This document shows, in pieces, positions 21,372 through 49,814 of a stretch of 64,000 bases of DNA. Within the stretch, counting starts at the first letter, position 1; each line of letters starts with the position of its first letter. The stretch is taken from NCBI GenBank assembly GCA_017505705.1, contig JAFVOS010000008.1, positions 880 through 64,879 of the forward strand. The letters run 5' to 3'. The notes below the pieces were generated by a model, which saw nothing but the letters and a program-made list of their open reading frames with translations, had not been told where the DNA came from and searched no databases. Both the position numbers and the translations under genes were made by a program. This stretch comes from Alphaproteobacteria bacterium (GTDB lineage Bacteria > Pseudomonadota > Alphaproteobacteria > Rs-D84).

Positions 21372-21462
21372 GGAGTCGTCGCATAGTTGGTCTAGTGCGC
21401 TACATTGGAAATGTAGTATACTCGCAAGGGTATCAAGGGTTCGAATCCCTTCGACTCCGCCA
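21372..21462 (+). tRNA. tRNA-Ser(GGA), type II, with CCA encoded.
   Basis: Manual fold: acceptor GGAGTCG/CGACTCC, a 3-bp D stem, anticodon stem ctaca/tgtag with loop ttGGAaa, a long variable arm, T arm aaggg-ttcgaat-ccctt and discriminator G+CCA. Confidence 0.85.
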
Positions 21463-21474
21463 GAAATAATCAAA
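21454..21474. repeat. Left copy of the 21-nt direct repeat (tRNA-Ser 3' end plus 12 nt). Candidate left attachment-site junction of the island.
   Basis: actccgccagaaataatcaaa is identical at 49794-49814. Confidence 0.7.
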
Positions 21475-21508
21475 ACCCCGACAAAATCTGTCGGGGCTTT
21501 GTTTTTAT
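21474..21508 (+). terminator. Rho-independent terminator after tRNA-Ser.
   Basis: Hairpin ccccgacaaaatctgtcgggg followed by a T-run. Confidence 0.6.
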
Positions 21509-21685
21509 GCGGATTACCGCCACTTTCCCACCACAAGGTTACCAGTATGTACACCGAAGTCCCCAAATACACTAAATTCCACCCCGTTTACATACAACCC
21601 CAAAAATCCCGATGCCAGTATCGTATATGTCTTGAAAATATGCCAATGTTTCTTATATTTGTCACATGAATATAAAGGATTTAAA

Positions 21686-22162
21686 ATGAATGTATTAAAT
21701 TGTGTGTTTGCCGGAATAAGTGCTTTTTCTGCCGCTGCGATTGGGATCGCTGCATTTTTTATTTCTAAGGCTCAGTTAAAAATCGATAAACATAAAAAAG
21801 ACGATTTTTTATATGATAAGCGTTTCCAAGTGTACGATGATATAAAAGATATAATACTAAGTGCAAGCTCCGAATTGTTTGCTTTAAATAATAAAGAAAT
21901 TGATGGAATCGATGCAAAATTTGTGCGTCCTTTATATAATAAAGTTAGTTCGTTAATAAGTGATGCAGATTTGTTGTTTAAAGATGAAAATATACGCAGT
22001 TATATTTGCGAGCTACGTTTAGATGTAGCACGCTTATTCGGTGTCAACAATATACAAATTGTTGATGACGATCAGAAGTGCGAAATTATTAAGAAGTGGG
22101 ATGAACAGATGTCGTCTGGTTATATGATAGACTTGTTCGGTAAGTATTTGAAACTAATATAG
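21686..22162 (+). CDS. Hypothetical membrane protein (island cargo).
   Basis: The ORF has a good RBS (aaaggatttaaaATG), an N-terminal TM helix and a low GC content. Confidence 0.4.
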   Translation: MNVLNCVFAGISAFSAAAIGIAAFFISKAQLKIDKHKKDDFLYDKRFQVYDDIKDIILSASSELFALNNKEIDGIDAKFVRPLYNKVSSLISDADLLFKDENIRSYICELRLDVARLFGVNNIQIVDDDQKCEIIKKWDEQMSSGYMIDLFGKYLKLI

Positions 22163-23746
22163 TTGATTCTCTCTTGCAATCTGGAACAAATCATTAACAC
22201 TTATGTGTGTTTCCCCGGACAGGATTTCATTAACCTTGTCCGGATTCATATATGCGATATCCAGATGCCGGTAAAACTGACGTGGCGATGTGTGTTCTTC
22301 TTGGAATATGCGGTGTATGTCCCCATCCCGTTCATACAATTCTCTATATTTCCACGCGGTGGCAAAGGCCTTTAATATCAGGTGGTTATTTACTGTAATG
22401 CTCAGTGTGCCGTTACTTCCATCGCTAAATCTGGTGTTGGCATATCGGCGCAGCACAATGGATCGTACAATCGTTACCGTATCGTCATTAACACTGTATT
22501 CCATGGGATTTGCATTTTGATTGATATGATATTCAGATAAAAATGCATTGAATAACAGTGGATTGGTATTGATATGAAATACCAGTTTTTCATGTGAATA
22601 AATAGCTCGTTCAATCATAACGCGAACCAATTCCCGCCTTTGCAGGTATGACAGGTCTTCCCACACAATCCGTTTCAATGCCAATACCACATTTTGGGAC
22701 AGGGTACTCATATCACTGTTCAGAAATTCGGCTACAACAGACATGGCTATTTCATCCACCTGTGCCGCCGGCAGATAGAATCCCCGTGTTGCATAGTAAT
22801 ATGGCCCAACCTTATCCTTGGGGCATGCGTGCTGATTGGCAAAACGTACACCTTTGTCGTTATACAGCTTTCGTGACAGCAGGTTGGGTGACCGCCTGCG
22901 ATGACTGGTATTATTAGAATTCGCAACCAGTGCATCCTGTACCCGTTGAAATACTTCCGGCGATACGATCTCCTGATGCTCGCCACGGGCAACATTATTG
23001 CTGACTTTGTTTTCAATCATCCCGATATAGATTTTATCTCGTAAAATCTTGTGCATACTGTTCGGTGTAATGGGCTTGCCACCACGCAGCACCCCTTTGG
23101 CGGTTGTCCATGCTTTGGCACGAATCCCATTGCTTTCGGCCCATTGGGTTAAATCATTCACAGATTGCAGTTCCAAGTATTTTTCAAACAACTGTCGCAC
23201 TTGCTCTGCTTCGGCTGGATTTACAATCAGCTTCTTGTCCACGACATCATATCCCAACCGTGGCATGCCTCCCATCCATATGCCTTTGGCTTTACTGGCG
23301 CGTATTTTATCCCGTACTCGTTCGCTGGAAACTTCGCGTTCAAACTGGGCGAACGACAGCAACATATTCAGCGTCAATTTACCCATAGATGTACTGGTGT
23401 CAAACGATTGGGTTATGGACACAAAGTTCGCGTTATGCTTGTTGAAATATTGCATCATCTTATGAAAGTCCAATATGGAACGTGACAGTCGGTCAACCTT
23501 GTAAACCACCACGGTATTTACCAAACCACGTGCCATATCGTCCAACATTTGTTTCAGGGCAGGCCGTTCCATAGTCCCACCAGAAATCGCAGCATCACTG
23601 TAAGTTTTATAATATTGCCACCCATTGAATGATTGGGACGCAATATACGCTTTACAGGCCTCTTCTTGGTTTTGCAGGGAATTGAACTCCATATCAAGTC
23701 CATGCTCGGTTGACTTGCGTGTATAAATCGCACATTTAATTGTCAT
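22154..23746 (-). CDS. Large serine recombinase (resolvase/invertase family integrase).
   Basis: An N-terminal resolvase catalytic domain (AIYTRKST...GGTMERPALKQML...YKVDRLSRS), a recombinase domain and a long C-terminal region. It is 530 aa long. Confidence 0.85.
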   Translation of the reverse strand: MTIKCAIYTRKSTEHGLDMEFNSLQNQEEACKAYIASQSFNGWQYYKTYSDAAISGGTMERPALKQMLDDMARGLVNTVVVYKVDRLSRSILDFHKMMQYFNKHNANFVSITQSFDTSTSMGKLTLNMLLSFAQFEREVSSERVRDKIRASKAKGIWMGGMPRLGYDVVDKKLIVNPAEAEQVRQLFEKYLELQSVNDLTQWAESNGIRAKAWTTAKGVLRGGKPITPNSMHKILRDKIYIGMIENKVSNNVARGEHQEIVSPEVFQRVQDALVANSNNTSHRRRSPNLLSRKLYNDKGVRFANQHACPKDKVGPYYYATRGFYLPAAQVDEIAMSVVAEFLNSDMSTLSQNVVLALKRIVWEDLSYLQRRELVRVMIERAIYSHEKLVFHINTNPLLFNAFLSEYHINQNANPMEYSVNDDTVTIVRSIVLRRYANTRFSDGSNGTLSITVNNHLILKAFATAWKYRELYERDGDIHRIFQEEHTSPRQFYRHLDIAYMNPDKVNEILSGETHISVNDLFQIARENQLY

Positions 23747-23823
23747 TTTAAATCCTATGGTTTTATAATTGATACTAGTTTTGTGTTCTTATAGAATAGG
23801 TTATATAAATAAAGGAGATATAC

Positions 23824-24096
23824 ATGATTTCTAATTTGTTCTTGATTGTAGGTATTATTGCTAGTTTTATGTTTGCTGCCAAAAATAATAAGTTGGCAAG
23901 ACAGCAGGACAATAATATTGCAGATATCGTTGCGACCTATAATGAAAAGTCTTCCGATGTCCAAGATAGGATTGAAATGAGTATTGCTATAGCCATGGCA
24001 GATAGAAAAGCGGATCATTTTGCTAATTGGGCAGAAGTATATTTTTTTTCAGCTCTACTATGCATATTGTTTTTATTGATTAAGATTGGTTTGTAA
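23824..24096 (+). CDS. Hypothetical small membrane protein.
   Basis: Strong RBS aaggagatatacATG. It has two hydrophobic segments. Confidence 0.35.
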   Translation: MISNLFLIVGIIASFMFAAKNNKLARQQDNNIADIVATYNEKSSDVQDRIEMSIAIAMADRKADHFANWAEVYFFSALLCILFLLIKIGL

Positions 24097-24515
24097 TTTT
24101 TTGACAAGCCAAAGAAATCCGGTCCCGAAATCTTGATGCCTGATATATCTTTGGCTATTGCGGATAAAGTGCGATATTTTTCGCCATTATACGTGAACGT
24201 ATTGTCGTCATTGACGATGACTTCATGCATGATTCCACGGAATTCTTTGCGTATAATCGCCCCCGGCGTCAGGTTGTATTTAGTCCGTGCCGCACGCATC
24301 ACGCACTCTGACGGATTATCTTTATACCGCTTGATTTTAACCAAGTGTTTTTTCTCTATTCTCAATCCCAATCGGTCGCATTGAATATAGTACCACAACG
24401 AACGGTTTTGTCGTTTGAACGGGTGGGGCGAATATTTTGCCCATAACTTTGCCCGTTCTGAATACGGTAATGCCTTTAATACATCAATGGTTTTGGGTAA
24501 TTCCCTTTTTCTCAT
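24015..24515 (-). CDS. Hypothetical protein, possibly a recombinase-associated accessory protein.
   Basis: 166-aa ORF immediately upstream of the serine recombinase on the same strand. It has no confident domain call. Confidence 0.4.
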   Translation of the reverse strand: MRKRELPKTIDVLKALPYSERAKLWAKYSPHPFKRQNRSLWYYIQCDRLGLRIEKKHLVKIKRYKDNPSECVMRAARTKYNLTPGAIIRKEFRGIMHEVIVNDDNTFTYNGEKYRTLSAIAKDISGIKISGPDFFGLSKNYKPILINKNNMHSRAEKKYTSAQLAK

Positions 24516-24845: not shown

Positions 24846-25874
24846 ATGGCTGGCAAAAGCGGTTTGAAAGTAGGCAGTTTTTTTGCAGGATTAGGCGGAA
24901 TTTGTTTGGGGTTTAAAAATGCCGGGTTTGATCTGGTTTGGTCTAATGAAATAGATGCGGCAGCCTGCAAGACATATAGAGCGAACTTTGATCATGTTTT
25001 GGTTGAAGGTGATATTTGTGCGCTTAGTCCAGATGACAAGAGATTGAAAAAAGTAGATATTATTACCGGTGGGTTCCCTTGTCAGGCTTTTTCTATAGCG
25101 GGATACCGTAAAGGTTTTGAAGACGAGCGTGGGCGAGGGAAGTTGTTTTTTGAAATGTTGCGCTTTATAAAAGCTTACAAACCCAAGGTTCTTTTCTTTG
25201 AAAACGTTCGAAATCTACAAAGCCATAATAATGGTGAAACTTATAAGGCCATTGAAAAAGCATTAACGAATCTCGGTTATCATGTGTGTTCCAAGGTTTT
25301 AGACACTTGTGAATATTCCAGGGTTCCGCAACATCGTGAACGATTTTACATGGTCTGTTTCAAAAGCAAAAGACGTGCCAAATTATTCGATGAAATTGGC
25401 TGGCCTAAAAAAGTTCCGGCCAGCAGACGGTATAAATACTGGGATATTGTTAATGAAACGGCAGATGAGATCCATTATTTCAATCGATACCCCCATTATT
25501 ATAAACCAGCAATGGAAACTATAGAAGCTACTGGTAATGATTGTGAGGCGTTTTATCAGTGGCGCAGGGTTTATTGCCGGAAAAATAAGAATGGTGTATG
25601 TCCGACATTGACAGCAAATATGGGGGGCGGTGGTCATAATGTGCCATTGGTTATGGATAAAAAAGATTTAAGGCGTTTGACCCCAGAAGAATGTTTGAAG
25701 TTACAGGGATTTGACCCGGATACATTCAAATTTCCAGACGATGTTAGCTTGGGTAACAGATATAAACAGATTGGTAACGCAGTTTCGGTTCCTGTTGTGG
25801 AAGAGATAGCGAAGGGTATATTAAAGGTTTTAAGCCCTCAGGACAAAAAAACAACCGATGGGCAAGCTTCGTAA
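24846..25874 (+). CDS. DNA (cytosine-5)-methyltransferase, Dcm-like.
   Basis: Motif I FFAGLGG, motif IV GGFPCQAFS (PC catalytic Cys), motif VI ENV and motif X QIGNAVSVPV. Confidence 0.9.
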   Translation: MAGKSGLKVGSFFAGLGGICLGFKNAGFDLVWSNEIDAAACKTYRANFDHVLVEGDICALSPDDKRLKKVDIITGGFPCQAFSIAGYRKGFEDERGRGKLFFEMLRFIKAYKPKVLFFENVRNLQSHNNGETYKAIEKALTNLGYHVCSKVLDTCEYSRVPQHRERFYMVCFKSKRRAKLFDEIGWPKKVPASRRYKYWDIVNETADEIHYFNRYPHYYKPAMETIEATGNDCEAFYQWRRVYCRKNKNGVCPTLTANMGGGGHNVPLVMDKKDLRRLTPEECLKLQGFDPDTFKFPDDVSLGNRYKQIGNAVSVPVVEEIAKGILKVLSPQDKKTTDGQAS

Positions 25875-25945
25875 ATATTTTGAAAATATTTATATATTTT
25901 ACATATTTAGTTGACATTTGCTATTTGTAGTATACAATCAATGGC

Positions 25946-26161
25946 ATGGATAGTACAAAAAGAGCGAATTTTAAACGGCTTGCGGAAGCAAGAGGAAATA
26001 AGGTGCTGAAAGATTTGCGCCTGGTTGGTAATTTGGCTAATAGACATAATTACGAGTATTCAGATAGGGATATTAATATTTTGTTTTCTGCAATAGAACA
26101 AGAGTTACGTGCCGTTAAAGCGGGTTTTCAACGAAACAAAAAGCACGAGGTAAAATTATGA
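25946..26161 (+). CDS. Small protein (71 aa), the first gene of the GHKL cassette. It may be regulatory.
   Basis: A TTGACA/TACAAT promoter sits ~35 nt upstream. Its stop overlaps the next start in an ATGA arrangement. Confidence 0.4.
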   Translation: MDSTKRANFKRLAEARGNKVLKDLRLVGNLANRHNYEYSDRDINILFSAIEQELRAVKAGFQRNKKHEVKL

Positions 26162-28059
26162 GCGCTGTGAATTGTAAATGGCATTTTCCGTCAACAGATG
26201 GTGGAGATGAGGACGGTATAAATAATAGTGGGTTGCAAACATTCGAGGGCGACCATGAATCTGCCATTGCGCGTGAATGCATACAGAATTCTCTTGATGC
26301 TATAAAAAACCAAAATGCACCAGTTAAAGTGCAAATGCAATTCTTTGAAATTGATACGTCAGATGTACCAGGTGTCGAAGAATTAAAACAAAATATAATG
26401 GCAGCAAAAGAATTTGCTGGCGATACCATGGGAGCAAATATTTTCTTTTCTAAAGCTATAACCACCTTAAATAAAAACAAGATTTCTGTGTTGCGTATAG
26501 GAGATTATAATACAAAGGGGCTTGTTGGGGGTGATAGAGATAAGAATGGAAGCTGGTATAGCCTGGCCAGGTCGAACGGGTTTAGCCAAAAAAACGAAGC
26601 GGATTCTGGTGGGTCATTTGGAATCGGCAAAAATGCTCCATTCGTTGCATCAAATATACGAACAGTTTTTTATTCAACGTTAAATGAAAACGGGGAATAT
26701 ATTTTCCAGGGCAAATCATGTTTATCCAGTTTTAAAAAAGATGATGATGTAAAACGTGGAACTGGCCAATATGGTCAAGTTGCCGCTAAGGGCGTGGCTT
26801 CAATAAGAAACAATGATAACATTCCTGATTTGTTTAAAAGAACAGAAACAGGAACAGATATATTTGTTATCGGTTATCAACATCCTGATGATAAATGGAA
26901 AGATGCTTTGATAAGAGGAATCTTGGATAACTTTTTTGTTGCTATATATTATAAAAAATTAGTTGTGGAAATATTGGATGCAGATGAACTTTTACCGGTG
27001 GTTATTGATGCGGAAAGCTTGGAGTTTTACATAACTAAATATTTCAAAGATGATAATAACGAAGAAAATGCGACCTGGGCATACTATCAGGCTATTGTTG
27101 ATAGTACTAAACATTTTAAAGAAAAGTTAGAACCCTTCGGTAAAGTTGAATTATTTGTTAAAAGTGGGGTAGGAAATAGGAGCGTGTTGGGAATGCGTAA
27201 ACCTCTTATGAAAATAAACACTTTTAAAAACTTCAAACGTTCATACGATGATTTTGCCGGTGTATTTATTGCCCTGGATGATGTCGGAAATAAACTTTTG
27301 AAAAGTATAGAGCCACCTGCGCATAATAAATGGGACCCAGACCTTTGTAGATTAGAAAATTGTGCAAAAAAGCAGGATATCACAAAACTTAAGAATTGGA
27401 TACGTGAAAAATTAGAAAGTATGAATGCTGACGAAAATAAGCATCCTGAAGAAATCGATGATTTGGCCAAATATTTGCCATATGATGAGGCAGAACCTGA
27501 TTTGCCGAGCTGTCCAAGCAATACCGGGAATGCATCTGACGAAAACAACAAAGAGTCGGCAGATGAATTGCCACAACCGCCAGTTATGCAACCAGTTGAG
27601 CCTACACCACAAAGACCGTTGAATTTTATAAGGCCGGGAACGACCAATCCTGATGCTCCTGCTGATGAAATGAAAGTCCCCGTAAATCCAGGGACCAGGA
27701 AACCATTGCATAACAACGCCCCTGTAGAAAGAGACCCAAGCGGTAACGCCAGATTTTTAGATACAGCAAATCTAAATATAAAAACACACGAAGTTCGTAG
27801 GGGTGAAGATAGAGCATACATTTTCAATATTATACCGAAATGTGACGATAGTGGAGATATTGAAATAGTCGCTATAGCTGATGATGGATTCTATCCGGTT
27901 GATGTATCTAGTGCAAAGAACATTGATACAAATCAAGAATATAAAGTTGATAAATCTATCATTCACGATGTAACAACTGAGATGCAAAAATCGATAAGGA
28001 TAGAGATACGATTAAATAAGCAATATAGCAAAAGACGATACATATTAGGAGTTAAATAA
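26158..28059 (+). CDS. GHKL-superfamily ATPase (MutL/MORC/Hsp90-like Bergerat fold) with a disordered Pro-rich linker and a C-terminal domain.
   Basis: N-box ECIQNSLDA (ExxxNSxDA), G1-like IGDYNTKGL and G2-like SGGSFGIGK. It is 633 aa long. Confidence 0.65.
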   Translation: MSAVNCKWHFPSTDGGDEDGINNSGLQTFEGDHESAIARECIQNSLDAIKNQNAPVKVQMQFFEIDTSDVPGVEELKQNIMAAKEFAGDTMGANIFFSKAITTLNKNKISVLRIGDYNTKGLVGGDRDKNGSWYSLARSNGFSQKNEADSGGSFGIGKNAPFVASNIRTVFYSTLNENGEYIFQGKSCLSSFKKDDDVKRGTGQYGQVAAKGVASIRNNDNIPDLFKRTETGTDIFVIGYQHPDDKWKDALIRGILDNFFVAIYYKKLVVEILDADELLPVVIDAESLEFYITKYFKDDNNEENATWAYYQAIVDSTKHFKEKLEPFGKVELFVKSGVGNRSVLGMRKPLMKINTFKNFKRSYDDFAGVFIALDDVGNKLLKSIEPPAHNKWDPDLCRLENCAKKQDITKLKNWIREKLESMNADENKHPEEIDDLAKYLPYDEAEPDLPSCPSNTGNASDENNKESADELPQPPVMQPVEPTPQRPLNFIRPGTTNPDAPADEMKVPVNPGTRKPLHNNAPVERDPSGNARFLDTANLNIKTHEVRRGEDRAYIFNIIPKCDDSGDIEIVAIADDGFYPVDVSSAKNIDTNQEYKVDKSIIHDVTTEMQKSIRIEIRLNKQYSKRRYILGVK

Positions 28060-28061
28060 CT

Positions 28062-28880
28062 ATGACAGATATACCTTTCCCATATCCTGTACTTGGTAGC
28101 AATGGAGACATTGATGGTAGTTTTGATGTAACAATCATGATGGACTTTAGTATTGTCGGATTCTATACATTAAACTGTGAGTTTAAATTGGAAAACGCAT
28201 ATTTTGAAAATCTGATTAAAACACAACAGGCTGTTTACATGGTGGAAATAGAATGTGGCGCGACCAACTATCGTAACTCGTTCTCAACCAAAGATAAAAA
28301 AATGACCATAAGCATCCCAGATGATTTTGTTAGGGGGCGTGTTGACGTTAAGATATACATATGCGCAATCAAAGATATACCAGAATATAAACCAACAGGA
28401 ATGGATACAGAACTTTATGGAGATGATTCTTTCGAAATAAAAAGCGGTGAAATTATTGCTATTCATCCCTCAACAATGTTTCTTGCGGACCCTAAATATG
28501 ATTCTTTTAATGCCCCAATTCGTTCGTTTATAAAACTAAAAAAATCAACTACTCAATCTAAAGAAATGTTTGTGGATTATAACGATACTTTTATAGAAAT
28601 AGCATTACCTGAAGAAGATTATAAGTTATATCGCGAGATACATACCAGTAGTCCAGCATTAATTCATTCCTGTATAGTATTTCCTGTTTTGGTGGATGTG
28701 TTACACGAAATACAAAAAGAAGATAGTGTATATTCAGGAACAACTTGGTTTGATAGAGTAAAACAGATTTGTTTTGATAGACAAATTGATATTGCTGACC
28801 CTGTAGTTGCAGCACAAAAATTATTGGGATTGCCCATTAACAGAACGTTTAACTGGCGTAAAAACGAGCAAGAAAAATAA
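28062..28880 (+). CDS. Hypothetical protein, a cassette component.
   Basis: 272-aa ORF starting 3 nt after the GHKL gene stop. It has no recognisable domain. Confidence 0.45.
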   Translation: MTDIPFPYPVLGSNGDIDGSFDVTIMMDFSIVGFYTLNCEFKLENAYFENLIKTQQAVYMVEIECGATNYRNSFSTKDKKMTISIPDDFVRGRVDVKIYICAIKDIPEYKPTGMDTELYGDDSFEIKSGEIIAIHPSTMFLADPKYDSFNAPIRSFIKLKKSTTQSKEMFVDYNDTFIEIALPEEDYKLYREIHTSSPALIHSCIVFPVLVDVLHEIQKEDSVYSGTTWFDRVKQICFDRQIDIADPVVAAQKLLGLPINRTFNWRKNEQEK

Positions 28881-28891
28881 GGAAATGAAAA

Positions 28892-29665: not shown

Positions 29666-29674
29666 TATTGAATA

Positions 29675-29702
29675 ATAAAATCCCCATCATGGGGATTTTG
29701 TG
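29675..29702 (+). terminator. Rho-independent terminator.
   Basis: Hairpin aaaatccccatcatggggatttt. Confidence 0.65.
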
Positions 29703-29725
29703 TAACTTGTCAGGTAAATAGGCTA

Positions 29726-30545: not shown

Positions 30546-30554
30546 GGATTATGT

Positions 30555-40873: not shown

Positions 40874-42814
40874 TTTGTGGACTAGTTGTTTTACTTTTTC
40901 GGTTAGTGATTTTTCATCGAATTGAAAGTGTTTTTTTAGTTCTTCAAACGTTCCGCTACAACCATGTCTAAAACCATGGGTTTCTATTCTGCTTGGCATT
41001 CTTTTTGACTGATATTTAAACAGTATTGGGGATACACAAGCAGGAAGAAAGTCAGGGTGTCCATTATATACACACAAGCAGGGTTTGTTTTGTGCTAACT
41101 GTTCTGCGAAATCCTGCCCCAGCTTGTGCGGTGCGGTGATATTTATGAGTTTTGCACGTATGCCAATTCTATCCAATGCAGGCAATATATCGTAAAGGAA
41201 TGTTGTTGCGATCCCGCTAGAAAGCAAAACAACGTCTGGATCATCAACCATAGTATTACCAATTTCATACCAGGGATTTATTGAGTTAGGTACAAAACCG
41301 ATTTTAGGTAGATGTTTAGAATTGACACTATGACATCTGATGTAGTACAAAGAGTCGTTTTTTACAAACGCATGGTTCATGCAAGCAAAAAAATCTTCTG
41401 CATCAGATGGCTCCAAAAAGGTGGTGTTTTCCAACCAGTTGAATGCAAAAGATTGACTTACAGATTGATGCGTAGATCCATTGCGAGCGTTAGCAAAACC
41501 GCTTTTGTCCGCTGTGACAATTATTCGACTCTTGCCTTGTGCGGCAGCATGAAACTGATCCATGGCCCTGAAAGAAAATGCCTCAGTTGCATTTATATGG
41601 ATTCTAGCATCGGGGTCGGTTACAGAAATACCATGAGCCATCGCATACATATGTTGTTCCCTTAAGCCAACATCATAGTAATTTTTTATATTTTGCAAAC
41701 CACATTCTAAAATGGAATCTTTTTGCATTAAATCTGCTGTCAGAAAATAAAAATTGTTAATATCATTGTCGGCTACATGTTTAGATAGCAGACGATAGTA
41801 GTATGTGGTAGCATCGTGTTGGCTAACGTCTTGGTAAGAATCTAAACACAGGTTTATATAGGTCGGTTTTTGAGCCTTTGTGCTTGGAATGTTAATTGTT
41901 TTAGTACCTTTTTGTATAAAATCAAGCAATACATCTTTTGTTATGTTGTGCTTTTGTAAATGAGTTTCTTTTTCTTCAATCAATTTGCGTACAATATCAT
42001 GGGGACAATTGCTAATTGTATGGTATCCACAAAAATTCTGCTTTTCCCCAAGCAAACCATTTCCCTTTGTTGTATGAGCAATGATAAGAGTTGGTTTATC
42101 TTTGTATTCACAAGCATGATGATAGGCTTGTTTTATCGCATCAATATCATGACCGTCAATTTCTATAACGTTCCAACCATATCCACGCCAAATTGTCGCT
42201 ATATCCGATTTGGAGTTGTAGTCAGACGTTGGTCGTGATAGCTGTTTTCCATTTTTGTCCAGGATGCAGATGAGATTTCCAAGGTTTTGATTGGCCGCAT
42301 AACGAGCTGCTTCACTAACGTTCCCTTCTTGTTCTTCGCCGTCACCCAGAAATACCCATGTGTTAAAAATGTGATTCCGTTGTTTTGATACGATGGCACT
42401 ACCTATTCCATACGATAGCACCATTCCAAGGGAACCGGCTGGTGTGATATCGACACCAGGTAGCTCAAACATGCACTCATGACCTTGCAATCTAGAATTA
42501 ACAAAGCGGTACTGTAGCAATTCTTCATCGGAAACCCAATTTAATAATGAAAATAAGGGGTAACGTAACGGTCCCAGGTGCCCCCTTAAAAGAACTCTGT
42601 CTCTATCATGGTGTCTGGGGTTCTCTATAGAATATTTTAAGAATCCGCCAAAGTATAGAGTAGACATTAGTTGAATGGAGGACAGGGATGCCCCTAAGTG
42701 ACCAGATTTAGAGTGTAGGCAGATCTTGGCAACTTGAAGAGCAAGATAATCACATAAATATTTTATATGGGAATTTTTGCTTGTTGTGATATCAACAATA
42801 TTTAATGAGTCCAT
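40868..42814 (-). CDS. Transketolase-family TPP-dependent enzyme.
   Basis: SGHLGASLS near the N-terminus and the TPP-binding GDGEEQEG(N) motif. It is 648 aa long. Confidence 0.7.
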   Translation of the reverse strand: MDSLNIVDITTSKNSHIKYLCDYLALQVAKICLHSKSGHLGASLSSIQLMSTLYFGGFLKYSIENPRHHDRDRVLLRGHLGPLRYPLFSLLNWVSDEELLQYRFVNSRLQGHECMFELPGVDITPAGSLGMVLSYGIGSAIVSKQRNHIFNTWVFLGDGEEQEGNVSEAARYAANQNLGNLICILDKNGKQLSRPTSDYNSKSDIATIWRGYGWNVIEIDGHDIDAIKQAYHHACEYKDKPTLIIAHTTKGNGLLGEKQNFCGYHTISNCPHDIVRKLIEEKETHLQKHNITKDVLLDFIQKGTKTINIPSTKAQKPTYINLCLDSYQDVSQHDATTYYYRLLSKHVADNDINNFYFLTADLMQKDSILECGLQNIKNYYDVGLREQHMYAMAHGISVTDPDARIHINATEAFSFRAMDQFHAAAQGKSRIIVTADKSGFANARNGSTHQSVSQSFAFNWLENTTFLEPSDAEDFFACMNHAFVKNDSLYYIRCHSVNSKHLPKIGFVPNSINPWYEIGNTMVDDPDVVLLSSGIATTFLYDILPALDRIGIRAKLINITAPHKLGQDFAEQLAQNKPCLCVYNGHPDFLPACVSPILFKYQSKRMPSRIETHGFRHGCSGTFEELKKHFQFDEKSLTEKVKQLVHKS

Positions 42815-42924
42815 GGCGTACCTCTTTAAATAGGATAATATACGATAATATGATTTCTATCAAGTAGTTATTGTTTTTTGTCATATTTGTGTTATGCTGA
42901 ATCTAAAAAATAAGGTGATAAACA

Positions 42925-44586
42925 ATGAAAGAATATTTTTTGGATCCTTTTAAACCTAATTTTTCTAACTTTATTGAACAGTTGATGCAACTGAACGATA
43001 ATGTAAAACAGTACATAAGAAATGATGTAGCCAGGGTCCCAAGTTCTATAGAAGAAAACTATGCGACTTTGTTGTCTAAGGAAGAGCTGTCAGAACAAGG
43101 GGAAGATTTAGATGCGATTTATTCAAAATTGGCATATTATTCACAAGGACTAATACGATGGAATCATCCAGGGGCTTTAATCAATGTTAATCCTCCTGCG
43201 TCCATTCCTTCGACAGCAGTTTCCAGCTATTTTTCATTGTTTAGCCCAAATGGCGCACAAGATATGTCTACAGGTTATCTTTTAACCACTGAACTGGCTG
43301 TGGTTAAAATGTTAAGCCAATTGGCGGACATAGACTATAAGCAATCTGGTGGTTACTTTACATTTGGGGGGAAGTCCACAAATATACATGCCATAAAGCA
43401 TGGATTGCAAAGAATTTCCAAGGATTATGGCACAAATGGTATCAGAGATGATGTTGTTACATTTTCTTCAACACAGGGGCATCCATGTCATGCTGAGGCA
43501 TGTAATTGGCTTGGAATTGGGGATAAAAACTGTATCAGGATATCCACCAACAAGATGGGTGAAATAAATCTGGAAGAGCTAGAAAACAGTATGTCTGCAG
43601 CCTTAGAGCAAGGCAAGAAAGTTGCGTGTATAACTCTGAATGGCGGGACAACTATACAAATGACAATAGACCCAATCAAAAAAGTGGTGGATATTAGAGA
43701 TAGATTGGTAAAGAAATATGAACTTGAATATATACCACGTATACATATTGATTCGGTCATAGGATGGGTTTGGCTGTTTTTCAAAAATTATGACTTTGCA
43801 ACAAATCCATTAAATTTCTCTGGTAAAGCATTGCAAAAATTGCAACGACAGATGAAAAGAATTAGCGAAATAAGGTATGCAGACTCTTTCGGTGTAGATT
43901 TTCATAAGACAGGATTTGCCCCATATTTATCATCTGTATACATCACCAAAGACAAAAGCGAGTTGTTTGATCAAAACCATTACAAAGGTATATCGTATGA
44001 CGAATTGGAGTACGGAAATTATTCTCCCTTTCAATACACTTTGGAATTGTCGCGGCCGCTAAATGGCGCATTGGCTGCGTACGTTAATTTAAAAAGCTTC
44101 GGCATTCAAGGGTTCCAAAAGATTATAGGTGGTCTTATGGATGCTTCTGAATATCTCAAGGATTTATTAACGGATACTAAGAGATTTGAGATTATCAACA
44201 ATGAAGATAGCGATGGTTTTGTTACATTATTTGTTGCGAAAGAGGATATGAATTCGCCGTCCTTTTTTGATTTAGGGGAGCTCCAGGCTGATGCCATAGA
44301 ACAGTTCGGACAATACAATTATAAGTTCTATCTATTCTTGCTGGAAAAACAAAAGAAAGGTGAATGCTGGTTTTCAATAGATTATTCAACCGGATATCAC
44401 AGATTGTCTAATGGCAAAAAGCTTGGGGTATTGAAAGCCTATCCAATGACTCCTTATTTTGACAAGCAAGCTGTAGAAAAGCTTACAGAAGATATAGTGC
44501 GATTCCAACAAGAGTTTGATAAGGTAAAAGAAACTTTTGTTGTAAAAGAAGTCCCGCACAAGCCAAGACCATTTGTATACAGATAA
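42925..44586 (+). CDS. Group II pyridoxal-phosphate-dependent decarboxylase.
   Basis: An HIDSVIGW block (the HxDAAxG equivalent) and a PLP-lysine context DFHKTGFAPY. It is 553 aa long. Confidence 0.7.
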   Translation: MKEYFLDPFKPNFSNFIEQLMQLNDNVKQYIRNDVARVPSSIEENYATLLSKEELSEQGEDLDAIYSKLAYYSQGLIRWNHPGALINVNPPASIPSTAVSSYFSLFSPNGAQDMSTGYLLTTELAVVKMLSQLADIDYKQSGGYFTFGGKSTNIHAIKHGLQRISKDYGTNGIRDDVVTFSSTQGHPCHAEACNWLGIGDKNCIRISTNKMGEINLEELENSMSAALEQGKKVACITLNGGTTIQMTIDPIKKVVDIRDRLVKKYELEYIPRIHIDSVIGWVWLFFKNYDFATNPLNFSGKALQKLQRQMKRISEIRYADSFGVDFHKTGFAPYLSSVYITKDKSELFDQNHYKGISYDELEYGNYSPFQYTLELSRPLNGALAAYVNLKSFGIQGFQKIIGGLMDASEYLKDLLTDTKRFEIINNEDSDGFVTLFVAKEDMNSPSFFDLGELQADAIEQFGQYNYKFYLFLLEKQKKGECWFSIDYSTGYHRLSNGKKLGVLKAYPMTPYFDKQAVEKLTEDIVRFQQEFDKVKETFVVKEVPHKPRPFVYR

Positions 44587-44595
44587 CCTAGAGGA

Positions 44596-46518
44596 TTGTT
44601 CATGAGAGCCGGCTATTACGTTTCTGCATTTGTGTGTTGCAATGAATTACAAAATCTATTGGATATTAAGCTACGTCACGATCAAACAATAGCGTTATGG
44701 TATTTTGATGGTAATAGTGAGGCAAAACTGGTCAAATACTGGGAATTAGAACGTATATCTGGTTATAAACAACATGCAAAAGCGTTTTACAATAAGGAGG
44801 CGTTTTATACCCTGTTGGAACAGTTGCTGGCAGAAGAAGAATTGTCATTAAAAGATGTTAATGAAATTTGTGGAACTAAAGAAATTGAAACGAATACACG
44901 CTACAGAGATGTTTTTGATTACACAGGGATAGCTTATCACAGTATCGCACATTTAATGACAGCTATGTATTATGGCAACAAGCAACCACTTCAAACAGAC
45001 ATGGTATTGTTAAGTTTAGATGCGGGTCCAGATAGTCAATTTGAAGAAGATGCATATGATAAGAAATTTTATGTTGGGGGAGTTATTAAGAATGGAAAGT
45101 TAGATATTTTTCCAATAGAATCGCCGGCCAGATTATGGAGTTATGCATTTAAGAAATTTAAGTTGCGAGAGGGGACTTTGATGGCTTTAGCTACCGCCAC
45201 AGATACGACCATAGAATTTGATGTATCTAAATTTGATGACGTCTCCTTTTATGATGACAGTACTAGGATAAAAGCAAGAAAAATTGTTGATGAAATATCT
45301 GAATTTGTATTTAGTACGTGTCTGCCAAAAAATGCGGACAAGCGTTTTTCAGAAGAGGAACATAAAATTAGTGCCATAATGAAAAACGTAGCTAATTTGT
45401 CTCAGAGAATATTAGACAGAAATATAGAGCGGATTATCAAGCAGTATGAGCTTGTAGCAGAAGAAACAATTATCTCTATGGCTGGTGGTTTTGCGTTAAA
45501 CTGTCCTACAAATTCGTATATCCTTCAGAAATATAAATTTGCTAACTATCAAATTCCGCCATGTACAAGTGATACAGGAATTGCTGCAGGGATAGGTTTG
45601 TCAGCTTTCTATGTAGATTTAGGAACTTCTGACTTAAAAATAGATTTTTCGTCTGCTTATTATGGACAGACAGTAGAAATGGATACCGCTATTTTGAACA
45701 AGTATCAATCGTACATAGATGCTGTGGATGCTGTGAACTCTAAAGATATTGTTGAAGATATAATCAAAGACTCAGTAATTGTATGGGTAAATGGGAATTC
45801 GGAGATCGGTCCACGTGCGCTTGGGAACAGATCGTTAATAGGTGATCCACGTACAACGAAAACGAAAGACCTGCTGAACAATATCAAAAAACGTCAGTGG
45901 TGGCGTCCGGTTGCTCCGGTTGTGCTAGATGAGAAAGCAAAAGATTGGTTGGAAGATTATACATATTCTCCAAATATGTTATTAAATTTTGTAGTAAAAC
46001 CTGAACAGCTAGATAAAGTGCCAGCTATCTTACATTTTGATAATACCGCACGGGTGCAGAGTGTATCCAGGGACAGCAATATAGAATTATATGATGTTTT
46101 ATTGGAGTTTTACAATATTACAGGAGTGCCGGTACTATGTAATACGTCCCTAAATGATGCAGGAGAGCCAATTATAAACAATTTGGAACAAGCGGTGATA
46201 TTTGCTTTGCACAAAAACATCAAACATATCTATATAAATGGCAAATACCGTATAACTCTAAAAAACAATACCGATTTGCAAGGTAAACCATTTGGCTATA
46301 GAGATGAGATATTTTTTATGCCAGACAAAGGTGCAAATACAGCCAAGATAATAGAAGAGCAAAATCCTTATGGCTTATCTATAAAAGAGTTAACATATTT
46401 TATGGATAATCCAAACATTTTTGCAAAATATGATATCAGAAAACAAGAAGATGCTTTGTTTATAAAGAATGCAACAGCAGAATATTTGGAGAATAACCCG
46501 GATGCACTGCAACGATAA
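44596..46518 (+). CDS. Carbamoyltransferase of the NodU/CmcH/TobZ family.
   Basis: C-terminal signature WVNGNSEIGPRALGNRSLIGDPR...RQWWRPVAPVVL. Confidence 0.75.
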   Translation: MFMRAGYYVSAFVCCNELQNLLDIKLRHDQTIALWYFDGNSEAKLVKYWELERISGYKQHAKAFYNKEAFYTLLEQLLAEEELSLKDVNEICGTKEIETNTRYRDVFDYTGIAYHSIAHLMTAMYYGNKQPLQTDMVLLSLDAGPDSQFEEDAYDKKFYVGGVIKNGKLDIFPIESPARLWSYAFKKFKLREGTLMALATATDTTIEFDVSKFDDVSFYDDSTRIKARKIVDEISEFVFSTCLPKNADKRFSEEEHKISAIMKNVANLSQRILDRNIERIIKQYELVAEETIISMAGGFALNCPTNSYILQKYKFANYQIPPCTSDTGIAAGIGLSAFYVDLGTSDLKIDFSSAYYGQTVEMDTAILNKYQSYIDAVDAVNSKDIVEDIIKDSVIVWVNGNSEIGPRALGNRSLIGDPRTTKTKDLLNNIKKRQWWRPVAPVVLDEKAKDWLEDYTYSPNMLLNFVVKPEQLDKVPAILHFDNTARVQSVSRDSNIELYDVLLEFYNITGVPVLCNTSLNDAGEPIINNLEQAVIFALHKNIKHIYINGKYRITLKNNTDLQGKPFGYRDEIFFMPDKGANTAKIIEEQNPYGLSIKELTYFMDNPNIFAKYDIRKQEDALFIKNATAEYLENNPDALQR

Positions 46519-47551
46519 GAATAGCTTGCCACGTTTGACAAAGGACGAGCTGTTATATTACTTACAACAGTTTGCAGATTTCTCGTCTTATTACCAGTGT
46601 GCTGTTTTTTACGTGATTATTAAAAATCATTTATTGGGCTCAATGGGTAATGACAGCTATCAGGAATATCATAAATTAGTTCACGAACTGTTCCTATATG
46701 TAAACGACAAGAGGCAATTTGTCTCCATTATAGATGCATTTCTAGGGCAAACGACCACAGAAAATATAACATCAAATAATATTTTCAATATAGTTAAGAG
46801 TTGTATAGGCAAAGATTGCGATTATTTTACTAAGACACTTATATTTAATACATGGCTTTTCAAGAATAATTTATGCCCATTGCTTTGTTTTGCGTTTGGA
46901 GCATGGCAGGTTGAACCGGAAGTAACAGAAGATAAGTTGCAAGATATTATAGAGTTAACAATAATGTCTGTTTATAGAATTGTAGCTCACGCTCCAGAAA
47001 AGGACGACAAAACGTTGTTTAATGATAGCGGTGGTGTTTTTGACGTGCATATAACAGAAGATAAGCAGCATGTAAAAAAATACCCAAAGAATTATGCTGC
47101 GCTGGCATTTTTAGCACAACAAGAGGTAGAGTCTTTTGAATATTTTGGTAAGATTCCAGGATTAAAGCAGTTTTTGCCTCTTATGTATTCCTTAGATGCA
47201 CAAAGTAAGGTGCTGACGCACACATTTATAAATGGAATATCTGGGGATGATATCTTGAAAACAATAGGCCATCTGACAGGAAAGCAAAAAAAACAGTTGG
47301 CAAGCTTTTATGATATATATATGAAATATCCAGAAATGCGCTTTTTAGATGTACATCCAGGTAATTTTATTTGGGAACCTAAGACAGAACGTTGGTTTCT
47401 TATAGACTTAGGACTAATACCAAAAATTGGCTCAGATTATTATAAATGGGATAATTTTGATATGTACTTTCATAATGTGTGGGAAACTCGTTTATGGCAA
47501 ATGAAAAATGTGCCAATAAGGTCGTTAGATTACGCATTAACAAGCATATAA
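46502..47551 (+). CDS. Kinase-like protein (protein-kinase-like fold).
   Basis: A DVHPGNFIW catalytic-loop-like segment followed by FLIDLG (DFG-like). Confidence 0.4.
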   Translation: MHCNDKNSLPRLTKDELLYYLQQFADFSSYYQCAVFYVIIKNHLLGSMGNDSYQEYHKLVHELFLYVNDKRQFVSIIDAFLGQTTTENITSNNIFNIVKSCIGKDCDYFTKTLIFNTWLFKNNLCPLLCFAFGAWQVEPEVTEDKLQDIIELTIMSVYRIVAHAPEKDDKTLFNDSGGVFDVHITEDKQHVKKYPKNYAALAFLAQQEVESFEYFGKIPGLKQFLPLMYSLDAQSKVLTHTFINGISGDDILKTIGHLTGKQKKQLASFYDIYMKYPEMRFLDVHPGNFIWEPKTERWFLIDLGLIPKIGSDYYKWDNFDMYFHNVWETRLWQMKNVPIRSLDYALTSI

Positions 47552-47597
47552 ACATATACAAAAATAAAAAATGTCAATTTTTTTTAGTGTAAATACT

Positions 47598-47630
47598 TGA
47601 AAATCAAAAAAAAGCGATTATAATATACGT
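47598..47630 (+). promoter_or_regulatory. Sigma70-type promoter (TTGAAA, 16 nt spacer, TATAAT) for tyrS.
   Basis: Seen in the sequence upstream of the tyrS RBS aagagga. Confidence 0.45.
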
Positions 47631-47660
47631 ATATGAAAACAATAAAGAGGATTTTATAGA

Positions 47661-48941
47661 ATGTCAGATAATATTGAAAACACAATAAAAGTTATGCTTA
47701 AGGGAGCCGCTGAACATACAGATGTTTCTGAAATTAGGGCAAAGTTAGAAAGTATAGCTAAAGAAAACCGTCCGCTGCGAGTAAAACTGGGCTTGGACCC
47801 ATCTGCACCGGATATTCATATTGGTCATGCTGTGGTTTTGCGTAAAATCAAACAGCTACAAGACTTGGGACACGAAGCAATTATCATTATTGGTGATTTT
47901 ACAGGTATGATTGGTGATCCTACTGGGAAATCCAAGACGAGAAAGCAGTTGACTCCTGAACAAGTGGCACAAAACGCAGAAACATATAAAACGCAGATCT
48001 TTAAGATTTTGGATCCAAAGAAAACTACGGTTGTATTCAACAGTCAATGGTTGGGAAAAATGACATTTAAAGACGTTATTGATTTGTCTGCAAAATCAAC
48101 TGTTGCTCGTATATTGGAACGTGATGACTTTAAGAAACGTTACACAACAGGCCAGCCGATTTCTGTTCATGAATTCTTCTACCCATTGATGCAAGCGTAT
48201 GATTCCGTTGCGGTAAAAGCGGACCTGGAGCTTGGTGGAACAGACCAAACATTTAACATTTTGATGGGGCGTAATATACAGAAAGACTATGGGCTAGAAC
48301 CTCAGATCACATTGTTTATGCCTATTTTAGAGGGGACAGACGGTATTGAAAAGATGAGTAAGAGTTTGGGTAACTACATCGGTGTTAACGAACCTGCTCA
48401 TGTTATCTATGAAAAAGTAATGAAAATCCCTGATAATATGATCATCAAATATTATGAGTTAGCGACAGACTTGCATCCAGATGCAATCAATGTCATCAAA
48501 GCAAGATTGCAGAAAGGCGAAAATCCTCGTGATATAAAGATGGAATTAGCAAGGGAAATAACAACTTTATATCATGATGCTGCCGCTGCTGTAAAAGCAG
48601 AAGAACGTTTTAAGACTGCATATCAGCAGCAAAAAGCACCAGAAGACGTTCAGGTCATCTCTTATGAAGACAACGCAGATGCCTTTTATGCTTTGATAAA
48701 GGCTATCTCAACTTCAGGAAAATATAAGTCAAATGGTGAAATCAGACGTTTGATGATACAAGGTGCTGTAAAAGTAAATGGCTTAAAAGCACAAAAACAA
48801 GAAGATGTTCCAGAAATCAAAGATGGCGATATCGTTCAAATTGGCAAAGGACAATTCTTTAAGATTTCTAAAAAAAAAGGTCCTGAAACAATAGCTAGTG
48901 AAATGTACGCAAAAGCCATTGAAAATTTGAAACAAAAATAA
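47661..48941 (+). CDS. tyrS: Tyrosyl-tRNA synthetase.
   Basis: The HIGH motif (PDIHIGHAV), KMSKS and a C-terminal S4 domain. It uses AGA/AGG Arg codons, unlike the core genes. Confidence 0.9.
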   Translation: MSDNIENTIKVMLKGAAEHTDVSEIRAKLESIAKENRPLRVKLGLDPSAPDIHIGHAVVLRKIKQLQDLGHEAIIIIGDFTGMIGDPTGKSKTRKQLTPEQVAQNAETYKTQIFKILDPKKTTVVFNSQWLGKMTFKDVIDLSAKSTVARILERDDFKKRYTTGQPISVHEFFYPLMQAYDSVAVKADLELGGTDQTFNILMGRNIQKDYGLEPQITLFMPILEGTDGIEKMSKSLGNYIGVNEPAHVIYEKVMKIPDNMIIKYYELATDLHPDAINVIKARLQKGENPRDIKMELAREITTLYHDAAAAVKAEERFKTAYQQQKAPEDVQVISYEDNADAFYALIKAISTSGKYKSNGEIRRLMIQGAVKVNGLKAQKQEDVPEIKDGDIVQIGKGQFFKISKKKGPETIASEMYAKAIENLKQK

Positions 48942-48942
48942 G

Positions 48943-48972
48943 AAAGCCGGCCTAGCCGGTTTTTTTGTTTTT
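48943..48972 (+). terminator. Rho-independent terminator.
   Basis: Hairpin agccggcctagccggt followed by T7. Confidence 0.6.
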
Positions 48973-48988
48973 ATACGCCACAATATAA

Positions 48989-49666
48989 TCATTCTTCTAT
49001 GTTGGAATATGATATGGCTTCATCTATTTTGTCCATCAACAAGCTAGCAAAAATCAATCGCTTTATAGCCATGTCCTTCGATATGATCTGATTTTCGTGT
49101 GCCTTGGGGTTTCTTATGCCTGTCATTGCGCCAGCAAATATGTTCATATATCCAATTTGGACATCTTTGCCAGTCTGTGTTTCTATGTTCTCAAAAGTTA
49201 ACACCGGGTTATTAGGCGAAAATACATGATTCATTAGGTTGTTGCCGTCTAGTTCCTCATTTCGAAATTTGCGATATAACTTTTTTAACCTAGAGTTAAT
49301 TTCCTTGAATGCAGACTCTACACAATCGGCATATTGTTGTGCTAGGAATTTTGGCTGTATAATTGGCAGCAACAAGGGGTGGATGTGCTTCCAGAAAGGT
49401 TCGTTCCGAGCCTGTAAAATATGACGTCGTAAAAGCTCTAGATTTTCTGATATAATGCCAGCTTCTAGTAATGTCATATATTCCGTTGCTGTATACAATA
49501 AATTGTCGGATATTTTCTTCCAATACATAGTATCTTCCAGGTGGTTTTCATAGATAAAATCCGTAAGACTCCTATGGAAACTGACGTATTCTGGGGTATT
49601 AAATCTGAACTTTCCCTTATAATCATGCAGTTTATAAAATTCGTTTATAATGTCATCAATGTTCAT
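48989..49666 (-). CDS. HEPN-domain protein (Rx4H motif), a candidate toxin or abortive-infection component.
   Basis: A GIRNPKAHE motif (R-x4-H) near the C-terminus in an alpha-helical protein. Confidence 0.5.
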   Translation of the reverse strand: MNIDDIINEFYKLHDYKGKFRFNTPEYVSFHRSLTDFIYENHLEDTMYWKKISDNLLYTATEYMTLLEAGIISENLELLRRHILQARNEPFWKHIHPLLLPIIQPKFLAQQYADCVESAFKEINSRLKKLYRKFRNEELDGNNLMNHVFSPNNPVLTFENIETQTGKDVQIGYMNIFAGAMTGIRNPKAHENQIISKDMAIKRLIFASLLMDKIDEAISYSNIEE

Positions 49667-49793
49667 GTCTATTTATCCTTTATTCTTGTATATAGGATTT
49701 TATATGAAAAATACAAGAGTTTTATAGTGGGAAAATCCCTGTAAATTCCCTGTAAAATTGGAATTTGTATGTGATTGGTCGTGATAAAATCAT

Positions 49794-49814
49794 ACTCCGC
49801 CAGAAATAATCAAA
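49794..49814. repeat. Right copy of the 21-nt direct repeat. Candidate right attachment-site junction of the island.
   Basis: Identical to 21454-21474. Confidence 0.7.

Follow-up and report, generated by a model that had tools for sequence, protein, structure and literature searches.

A serine recombinase-associated integrative element with packaging-type genes at the tRNA-Ser(GGA) gene of a gut alphaproteobacterium

We analysed a 64,000-nucleotide stretch of contig JAFVOS010000008.1 (assembly GCA_017505705.1), referred to here as the window, in which 28,340 bp from repeat to repeat (21475–49814) very probably form a single integrative element, mobilised by a serine recombinase and inserted at the 3′ end of a tRNA-Ser gene. 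The evidence comes from an exact direct repeat, from presence/absence and replacement polymorphism among strains, from the link between the recombinase and its tRNA across related loci, from conserved element arms, and from the junctions of tandem arrays. Recombinase homologues and flanking genes place the host, an uncultured and genome-reduced gut alphaproteobacterium, in the Candidatus Enterousia group of the order Rs-D84, a lineage with genomes of ~0.75–1.0 Mb (PMC12306168); an identical recombinase has been deposited as "MAG: Alphaproteobacteria bacterium". What is new here is a serine-integrase family that targets tRNA genes with terminase genes always aboard, the island as such being ordinary. 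No description of this element family was found in the literature searched, itself an incomplete collection.

Limits of the element and strain variation at the locus

The integration target is tRNA-Ser(GGA) (21372–21462, + strand; ARAGORN), which stands behind rpoZ in every related contig. An exact 21-nt direct repeat, ACTCCGCCAGAAATAATCAAA, takes in the last 9 nt of the tRNA (ACTCCGCCA) with its left copy, and forms the attL core at 21454–21474 (+) and the attR core at 49794–49814 (+). An earlier note on this DNA, made from the sequence alone, had reported this repeat as the boundary of a mosaic genomic island, and the window indeed holds exactly two copies; no further copy was found in it even at three mismatches, and none was expected (100 shuffles). 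The 15-nt tRNA end CTTCGACTCCGCCAG, also reported there at 49977–49991, has its only other window copy at 21449–21463. An exact search of IMG/VR with the 21-mer gave no matches and the JGI metagenome collection gave three, which does not agree with the widespread motif that the note had considered as an alternative. Two of the three are ends of related elements; the third (L083) is chance-like and was rejected as an element end, its flanks being unrelated to the element and about one chance match being expected at the size of the collection.

Contigs encoding the exact rpoZ protein were retrieved for strain comparison (L numbers denote our contigs and loci), and in backgrounds 98–100% identical to the window they revealed three states of the locus. 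The same island is present in L002, L004 and L009 at 99.9–100% identity. L001 and similar contigs (L074 is a continuation of the same contig) carry a different, 13.3-kb element at the same tRNA, consisting of Abi_C, a recombinase gene of 90% nucleotide identity, DUF2924, ParB-methylase, DUF5681, TerL and unrelated cargo. In L003 the element is absent, and the tRNA is followed by two ~190-bp units, each ending in a copy of the tRNA 3′ end, and then by the equivalent of window position 51487 onwards. Homology to the island-free and differently occupied strains breaks exactly at the repeats. Three locus states in near-identical backgrounds thus make the island a strain-variable insertion whose limits are the repeats, and the empty-site (L003) and differently occupied (L001/L074) relatives, with flanks 98–98.6% identical to the window, bear out the island reading of the earlier note.

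Both ends of the element are marked by conserved arms. The left arm (21475–21560, +; terminator scan) holds an element-borne terminator for the tRNA (21476–21496), a second GC-rich hairpin, and the conserved motif CACAAGGTTACCAGTATGTAC at 21532–21552, which occurs nowhere else in the window. Some 45 related loci have this architecture behind the tRNA, in the order tRNA end, G(R/T)AATA-type spacer, terminator hairpin, second GC-rich hairpin and motif; across the family the motif reads TTACCAGT(A/G)T(A/G)TA and lies ~85 nt from the tRNA, while the stem sequence of the terminator varies between lineages. The right arm, CCCTGTAAATTCCCTGTAAAATTGGAATTTGTATGTGATTGGTCGTGATAAAATCAT (49734–49793, +), has homologues in L074, L084, L085 (two copies) and L027, and its motif is likewise unique in the window. 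Within the clade it takes the form CCCTGTAAATTCCCTG...GGAATTTGTATGTGATTGGTCGT(G/A)A(T/C)AAA(A/C)TCAT, directly before the core.

The position of strand exchange can be narrowed further by comparison between elements. The 13.3-kb sister element has only ACTCCGCCA in common with the tRNA and tandem junctions keep AC(T/C)CCGCCAG, from which we infer that the crossover is confined to CCGCCA(G), that is, the discriminator base plus the encoded CCA. The length of the 21-nt repeat reflects extra attP/attB similarity in this lineage and not the size of the exchange, because the match of the element's attP extends over the 11 nt that follow the native tRNA. When the reconstructed attP and attB were scanned for dyad symmetry, only the terminator hairpins stood out strongly, and no half-sites of convincing symmetry were seen.

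Downstream of attR, the order of the locus is tRNA, 28.3-kb element, a conserved 177-nt spacer (unit B), an Hsp70 cassette and chromosome, and the locus is a tandem array from repeated use of one site. The earlier note had expected rpoZ/tRNA-Ser and the Hsp70-like gene to be contiguous in island-free relatives. This expectation failed: the Hsp70 segment is missing from L003 and L001/L074, and the conserved chromosomal flank, the true right-hand core flank, begins at 51487. There, a fourth, degenerate copy of the core (TCCGCATGG AATAATCAAAG, 51487–51506, +), which the note did not contain, aligns with L003 (10879–10898) and L074. The 1.5 kb at 49992–51486 (+) are a separate recombinase-less cassette and not core flank; they comprise a terminator (50006–50027; terminator scan), a gene for an Hsp70/actin-fold ATPase (50073–51428, +; Pfam) and, by alignment, a degenerate copy of the element's right arm (~51450–51486).

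Comparable arrays were found elsewhere. L085 runs from an Hsp70-like gene at the right end of one element through core, left arm, a one-gene ABC-F ATPase cassette, right arm, core, unit B and core to another left arm. In L027 two elements meet at a right arm–ACCCCGCCAG–left arm junction, and one IMG/VR contig carries two recombinases ~15 kb apart. Junctions of attP type (right arm–core–left arm) were seen only within the tandem arrays of L085 and L027. Cassettes that have no recombinase presumably depend on one supplied in trans.

The mechanism that we propose would run as follows. The recombinase encoded at 22154–23746, as the catalyst and probably with the help of the DUF2924 protein, would recombine the attP of the element with the extreme 3′ end of tRNA-Ser(GGA). 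As the element carries a terminator of its own and a copy of the last 9–10 nt of the tRNA (ACTCCGCCAG), the tRNA would remain intact after insertion, and the displaced original tRNA end would stay at the far junction. Repeated use of the site would build the array of 28-kb element, 177-nt unit B, 1.5-kb Hsp70 cassette and chromosome, with AT-rich cargo modules (defence; biosynthetic cluster and tyrS) slotted into a host-like backbone.

Composition shows this layering. The GC content of the island is 37.4% against 42.5% and 41.6% in the flanks, and AGA/AGG make up 0.40 of its Arg codons against 0.10 in core genes, in agreement with the AT-richness and rare codon use that the earlier note had described; every gene class that it had listed was also recovered in the interval (Pfam, NCBIfam, PADLOC, PHROGs). 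The recombinase, TerL, ParB-methylase and NERD genes are host-like (the packaging-type backbone has a GC content of 44%) and the cargo blocks are AT-rich, so that the term "mosaic" is apt. A fusion of two elements was considered for the 28 kb and rejected; no internal att or arm copies that would mark one were found in them, and the island is therefore treated as one unit with inserted cargo.

The serine recombinase and its tRNA targets

The presumed integrase/excisionase is a 530-residue protein (22154–23746, −) whose stop codon lies 692 bp from the end of the tRNA. Pfam, motif and structural matches assign it the sequence and the predicted fold of a large serine recombinase. It combines a catalytic domain (Resolvase, PF00239, 1.5e-39, residues 6–156) with a recombinase domain (PF07508, 1.7e-13, residues 177–273), and in its nucleophile-serine motif IYTRKSTE the residues YTRKSTE are kept in all homologues. 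Its best PDB matches in sequence and fold are the integrases of TP901-1, SPbeta, Bxb1, phiC31 and A118, and the top Foldseek matches of the model are those of SPbeta, Bxb1, phiC31 and A118.

Homologues were scanned with one genome per species, which gave 62 loci at 39–97% amino acid identity from gut Alphaproteobacteria and Elusimicrobia. Among the 60 loci scanned for tRNA genes, 51 have a tRNA just downstream of the recombinase, on the opposite strand and with its 3′ end towards the recombinase; the exceptions (9/60) are mostly loci with too little flank or tandem arrays. The targeted tRNAs are Ser-GGA, Ser-TGA, Ser-CGA, Tyr-GTA and Pro-TGG, with Pro-CGG in Elusimicrobia. A neighbour-joining tree of the recombinases revealed separate Pro-CGG, Pro-TGG, Tyr-GTA and Ser-GGA clades, and a fifth that mixes Ser-GGA and Ser-TGA, both of which end in TCCGCCA. 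By this sequence comparison, the recombinase clades match the identity of the target tRNA. In dozens of uncultured species, a clade of serine integrases follows the 3′ ends of six or more kinds of tRNA, which offers a natural series for studying changes of target specificity in serine integrases, and the well-defined attL, attR and tandem junctions provide ready att–integrase pairs for biochemistry and genome engineering.

The constant upstream partner of the recombinase is a DUF2924 protein (24015–24515, −; Pfam 8.6e-21), whose gene is the immediate upstream neighbour in 54 loci, those of Elusimicrobia included. Published work connects DUF2924 with the RAMA DNA-binding domain and with the phage WO recombinase, and in Wolbachia a recombinase gene lies immediately downstream of the DUF2924 gene (PMC10299305). 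We infer that the protein is a DNA-binding accessory or directionality factor. An 87-residue open reading frame (ORF) between the two genes (23755–24018, −) is optional in the family.

The nearest analogue in mechanism and architecture is the staphylococcal cassette chromosome (SCC/SCCmec) with its Ccr recombinases, which likewise pairs a large serine recombinase with the extreme 3′ end of a conserved gene and has direct repeats of ~15–20 bp. Repeated use of the SCC site gives tandem composite islands that include recombinase-less pseudo-elements, matched here by the Hsp70 and ABC-F cassettes and unit B. CcrB is also the best NCBIfam match of our recombinase (1.2e-34), at 120 bits against an equivalog cutoff of 900, which does not amount to membership of SCC. 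Unlike SCC, the element targets a tRNA and not rlmH, carries a DUF2924 partner and a terminase module, and resides in an alphaproteobacterial host.

Classical tRNA islands with P4-type tyrosine integrases share the restored tRNA 3′ end, the direct repeats, the deviant composition and an integrase gene adjoining the tRNA, and they differ in that the integrase here is a serine and not a tyrosine recombinase. Serine recombinases act by a concerted double-strand break with a 2-bp stagger and subunit rotation, and their directionality is controlled differently. The tycheposons of Prochlorococcus also target tRNA genes and form tandem arrays in which partial tRNA copies remain, and a large serine recombinase is present in 27 of 937 (bioRxiv 10.1101/2020.12.28.424599). 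With the island they share the tandem tRNA arrays, the partial tRNA copies and the carriage of cargo or of packaging genes like those of phage-inducible chromosomal islands (PICI). Tycheposons are defined by tyrosine recombinases and replication modules (primase, helicase), neither of which was found in the island, and in their PICI-like members terS or a capsid gene is present but cargo is not; the island has a serine recombinase with DUF2924, TerL/DUF5681/ParB-methylase, no replication genes, and cargo and packaging genes together.

The closest named phage recombinases are those of WO (Wolbachia) and AcaML1 (Acidithiobacillus), at 34–38% amino acid identity over ~70–76% of the protein. To our knowledge, WO integrates in protein-coding or intergenic sites and not in tRNA genes. 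The hosts of WO are Alphaproteobacteria too, and both are full-size phages: AcaML1 measures 59 kb, and WO ~65 kb with structural genes such as those for portal and baseplate (PMC10299305).

Packaging-type backbone and competing explanations

Beside the recombinase and DUF2924, the element carries genes for TerL (35643–37088, −), for a small DUF5681 protein in the position of TerS (37069–37443, −) and for a ParB_N–N6/N4 methylase (37440–38750, −), all identified by Pfam and PHROGs; two small ORFs of 104 (phrog_625) and 82 residues lie downstream of TerL (35025–35637, −). Recombinase, DUF2924, ParB-methylase, DUF5681 and TerL form a five-gene backbone, and the last three are found with the recombinase in most loci, oriented in one of two ways, and in dozens of species. 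The earlier note had called this part a packaging remnant, a description that does not hold: TerL has a full-length frame (472–493 residues) in 21 of 23 loci at 41–61% amino acid identity, and an intact and linked gene at such divergence indicates selection, not decay.

A search of IMG/VR with a single TerL sequence found nothing, and a profile of ten family TerLs was needed. This revealed ~45 contigs (L094–L140, L155, L158, L159, L162) with the five-gene backbone within a few kb, at 33–68% amino acid identity, from many samples and many of them 5–9 kb long. In four of them the recombinase is closely followed by a tRNA (Ser, Val or Gln) of opposite orientation, and two further contigs have tRNA-Pro nearby on the recombinase strand. 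Going by these matches, the family reaches well beyond Enterousia. A human-faecal scaffold deposited as "Bacteriophage sp." (MT839917.1, L092) is the bare backbone, and complete members with tRNA-end repeats measure 6–14 kb (L018, L034, L045, L056). The gap between TerL and DUF2924 is a cargo slot, which in other members holds a STAND NTPase, an ADP-ribosylglycohydrolase, a radical-SAM protein or an S24 repressor.

Neither the element in the window nor the complete members contain capsid, portal, tail, lysis, replication or conjugation genes detectable with Pfam or PHROGs. The combination of integrase and packaging-redirection-type genes (recombinase, DUF5681, TerL) with no full virion gene set is that of a satellite, and the intact terminase beside missing capsid, portal and tail genes suggests dependence on a helper phage; the deposition of backbone scaffolds as phage from human faeces and their presence in IMG/VR are the only hint of helper-induced packaging. 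On this gene content, spread as a helper-phage-dependent satellite would be the most parsimonious reading and is proposed tentatively, at somewhat less than an even chance. PICI, cf-PICI, P4-like elements and PLE are similar in their size of 6–15 kb, an integrase at one end, packaging genes, defence cargo and no full virion set. The PLE of Vibrio cholerae, too, relies on a large serine recombinase. Known satellites are recognised by hallmark sets such as those of SatelliteFinder (alpA, pri-rep, sid/psu/delta and others; PMC10085698). The island differs from them in having no such set, as searches for alpA, primase-replicase, sid/psu/delta and others with Pfam, PHROGs and NCBIfam showed, and in carrying both TerL and a TerS-position protein with no capsid genes.

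The terminase-only conserved backbone thus points to a possible new satellite family. In its widest form the proposal would be an undescribed and widespread helper-dependent family with a five-gene backbone, its recombinase retargeted to the CCA end of many tRNAs, serving as the main exchange platform for defence and metabolic cargo, including a small-molecule pathway with its own TyrRS, in gut Alphaproteobacteria with genomes below 1 Mb. We regard this as possible and rather doubtful.

Several observations weigh against a satellite, or an active element mobilised by its own recombinase. With 28 kb, this member has about double the length usual among complete family members, satellite-type replication and regulatory modules were not found in it, and it has no known helper phage. 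Searches for a circular contig or a free attP junction gave none among the contigs with the exact HEPN protein of the right end of the island (all of which show the same integrated context), in MT839917.1, in MT837927.1 or in IMG/VR, and there are no terminal direct repeats in these two scaffolds or in 80 IMG/VR loci. For a serine integrase, 21 bp is a long stretch of identity between attP and attB, and no recombination directionality factor was identified for the element. The recombinase has no PF13408 match and no CxxC pairs of a canonical zinc ribbon, its only cysteines being C5, C31 and C307, and residues 278–328 are modelled poorly (predicted local distance difference test, pLDDT, <50). 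Its C-terminal ~200 residues fold confidently in the model and homologues likewise have no zinc-ribbon cysteines; this region may be a non-canonical DNA-binding domain that reads tRNA-gene ends. Finally, all exact copies of the island share one chromosomal background, and only relatives of 95–96% identity occur in other contexts (L027, L084).

The strongest alternative is a plain integrative defence and cargo island that does not package itself, in which the terminase and ParB-methylase would be prophage relics or have another role and transfer would occur by generalised transduction, vesicles or transformation. It would account for the missing capsid, portal, tail, replication and AlpA-type regulator genes in the island and its 13-kb sister, for the lack of an identified helper (the single-sequence TerL search of IMG/VR gave no close phage) and for the lack of circular or terminally redundant contigs. 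The preserved TerL frame, its link to DUF5681, ParB-methylase and recombinase in the ~45 contigs of the viral collection with their signature of selection, and the satellite-like size of the complete members speak against it, and we consider it a serious explanation on which doubt clearly falls.

A fixed, immobile defective prophage, with fossil repeats and with strain differences that arose by deletion from a large ancestral prophage, is unlikely. Phage-type genes (TerL, ParB-methylase, phrog_625) with no structural genes would fit such a history, as would the truncated recombinases of some members (L053, L054, L065, L069) and short relics such as unit B and, in L003, unit A. The two repeats, though, agree at 21/21 positions, and the intact recombinase has homologues of up to 97% identity. 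The sister element is not a deletion derivative, given its different cargo and 66–90% nucleotide identity in shared genes; cargo has been swapped within otherwise 95–100% identical elements, and the five-gene set recurs across species with no structural genes.

That the serine recombinase is a passenger, with integration in trans by a tyrosine integrase encoded elsewhere, is very improbable. The 3′ ends of tRNA genes are the classical targets of tyrosine integrases, a point in favour of this explanation. Large serine integrases at tRNA genes were also rare in a 2020 survey of thousands of mapped elements (14/297), whose authors called them not previously reported and held that such use needs experimental proof (PMC7192596). 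Against it, Pfam and library scans found no tyrosine-integrase, transposase, relaxase, coupling-protein or type IV secretion system families among the island ORFs (those with no match are too short or lie inside the defence and cargo blocks), there is no tyrosine recombinase in the complete 13-kb sister either, and the serine recombinase keeps its position and orientation beside the tRNA in the 51 of 60 loci, with a phylogeny that follows tRNA identity, as would hardly be expected of a passenger. A chance or terminator-associated 21-mer in a variable region shaped by homologous recombination is barely credible, for although a terminator hairpin follows each repeat copy, these hairpins differ in sequence, the repeat has the near-absence of matches given above, and the junctions are exact limits of homology against island-free and differently occupied strains.

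Cargo modules and minor features of the locus

The slot between attL and the recombinase holds a 176-residue ORF of no known family (21632–22162, +). In the 13-kb sister element this place is taken by the Abi_C gene, and in L015 and L044 copies of the ORF with 98–99% identity stand beside recombinases of 90–93% identity.

Upstream of DUF2924 lies a defence block (24846–32159, +; Pfam, PADLOC), mostly AT-rich and with a high AGR fraction. It comprises a Dcm C5-methylase (24846–25874, +; Pfam, PADLOC), PDC-M33 A, B and C (26158–29665, +; PADLOC 2.9e-136, 8.4e-54 and 5.4e-29), a NUDIX protein/PDC-S07 (29726–30112, +; PADLOC), two ORFs with no assigned family (30153–31367, +) and a NERD nuclease-related protein of host-like composition (31440–32159, +). 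Directly upstream of PDC-M33, a candidate defence system with a DUF6339 protein as its C component, stands the Dcm-type methylase, an arrangement that suggests a modification-dependent or self-protecting candidate system. The block is followed by a putative type II restriction-modification pair (32434–34670), made up of a type II N6/N4 methylase (32434–33807, −) and a weakly matching REase_II-like protein of 293 residues (33789–34670, −).

On the far side of the packaging-type genes are six biosynthetic-looking genes on mixed strands (38963–47551), in the order HAD phosphatase (−), 418-residue orphan (+), transketolase-like (−), pyridoxal phosphate (PLP) decarboxylase (+), carbamoyltransferase (+) and kinase-like (+). 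Together with tyrS, which encodes a tyrosyl-tRNA synthetase with intact HIGH and KMSKS motifs (47661–48941, +; TIGR00234 3.5e-108), they make up a 10-kb AT-rich block (38963–48941). Three other metagenomic contigs (L088–L090) have the same six-gene order, and a distant cluster combines the 418-residue orphan and the decarboxylase with two class-Ib aminoacyl-tRNA synthetases. The relative in L027, with a backbone 95% identical, lacks the cluster and has just 1.4 kb between the HEPN gene and the ParB-methylase, which identifies the 10-kb block as an insertion.

In sample ERZ28018841 an otherwise 100% identical island departs at 47871 inside tyrS (L176, 5797–6754; L077), leaving a truncated tyrS of 344 residues beside a fragment of an AAA_21/Metallophos (ATPase/phosphoesterase) gene. 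Cargo has evidently turned over within the island. As tyrS is truncated in this variant and missing from island-free strains, it is an accessory copy, and its TyrRS might provide self-resistance or act as a partner in biosynthesis. At ~3% of a ~0.9-Mb Enterousia-type genome, the 28-kb element is an apparent trading site for defence systems and accessory metabolism. Several metagenome contigs (L008, L178) end exactly inside the tRNA (window ~21422) or at 47871, which fits assembly breaks from strain polymorphism. The right end of the island carries the gene of the HEPN-type Hypoth_Ymh protein (48989–49666, −; Pfam 4.8e-26; PADLOC PD-Lambda-3_B 7.9e-12).

Unit B (49815–49991, +), which lies between att copies, opens with the native terminator (49812–49833) and ends with the third copy of the tRNA 3′ end (49977–49991). 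It is also present in L003, L024, L054, L074 and L085, with 86–94% conservation across species, and contains a hairpin, GGTTTTGC...GCAAAACC against GGTTTGAC...GTCAAACC, with two compensatory pairs. A terminator precedes unit B, and another follows it in the window and in L085. Unit B may represent the remains of an older element or a small RNA that has not been characterised. A known RNA family was considered and rejected, as an Rfam search of 49300–51700 at a permissive threshold returned only a sub-threshold ArcZ match (18 against 66 bits), and ARAGORN found no tRNA or tmRNA; a T-arm-like hairpin on the minus strand was noticed by eye only. In L024 (3200–3400, minus strand), from another species, unit B directly follows the tRNA and an element begins after an internal CCCCGCCAG within it, the usual left arm being absent. 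Secondary-site use or a deletion could be the cause; given the absent left arm, secondary-site use is not claimed.

Genes for Hsp70/actin-fold ATPases recur at the right ends of elements or as single-gene cassettes, as in the window and in L085. In L085 the positions concerned are 8567–9880 and 6882–8324; its Hsp70 copy has 65% nucleotide identity, and element arms flank its ABC-F cassette.

A second strain-variable locus lies beyond the array, where GT1 and GT2 glycosyltransferase genes (52491–54896) adjoin tRNA-Arg(CCG) (54897–54973). In L003 they are replaced by two unrelated GT2/GT-D genes between conserved flanks, and the locus is probably concerned with surface polysaccharide.

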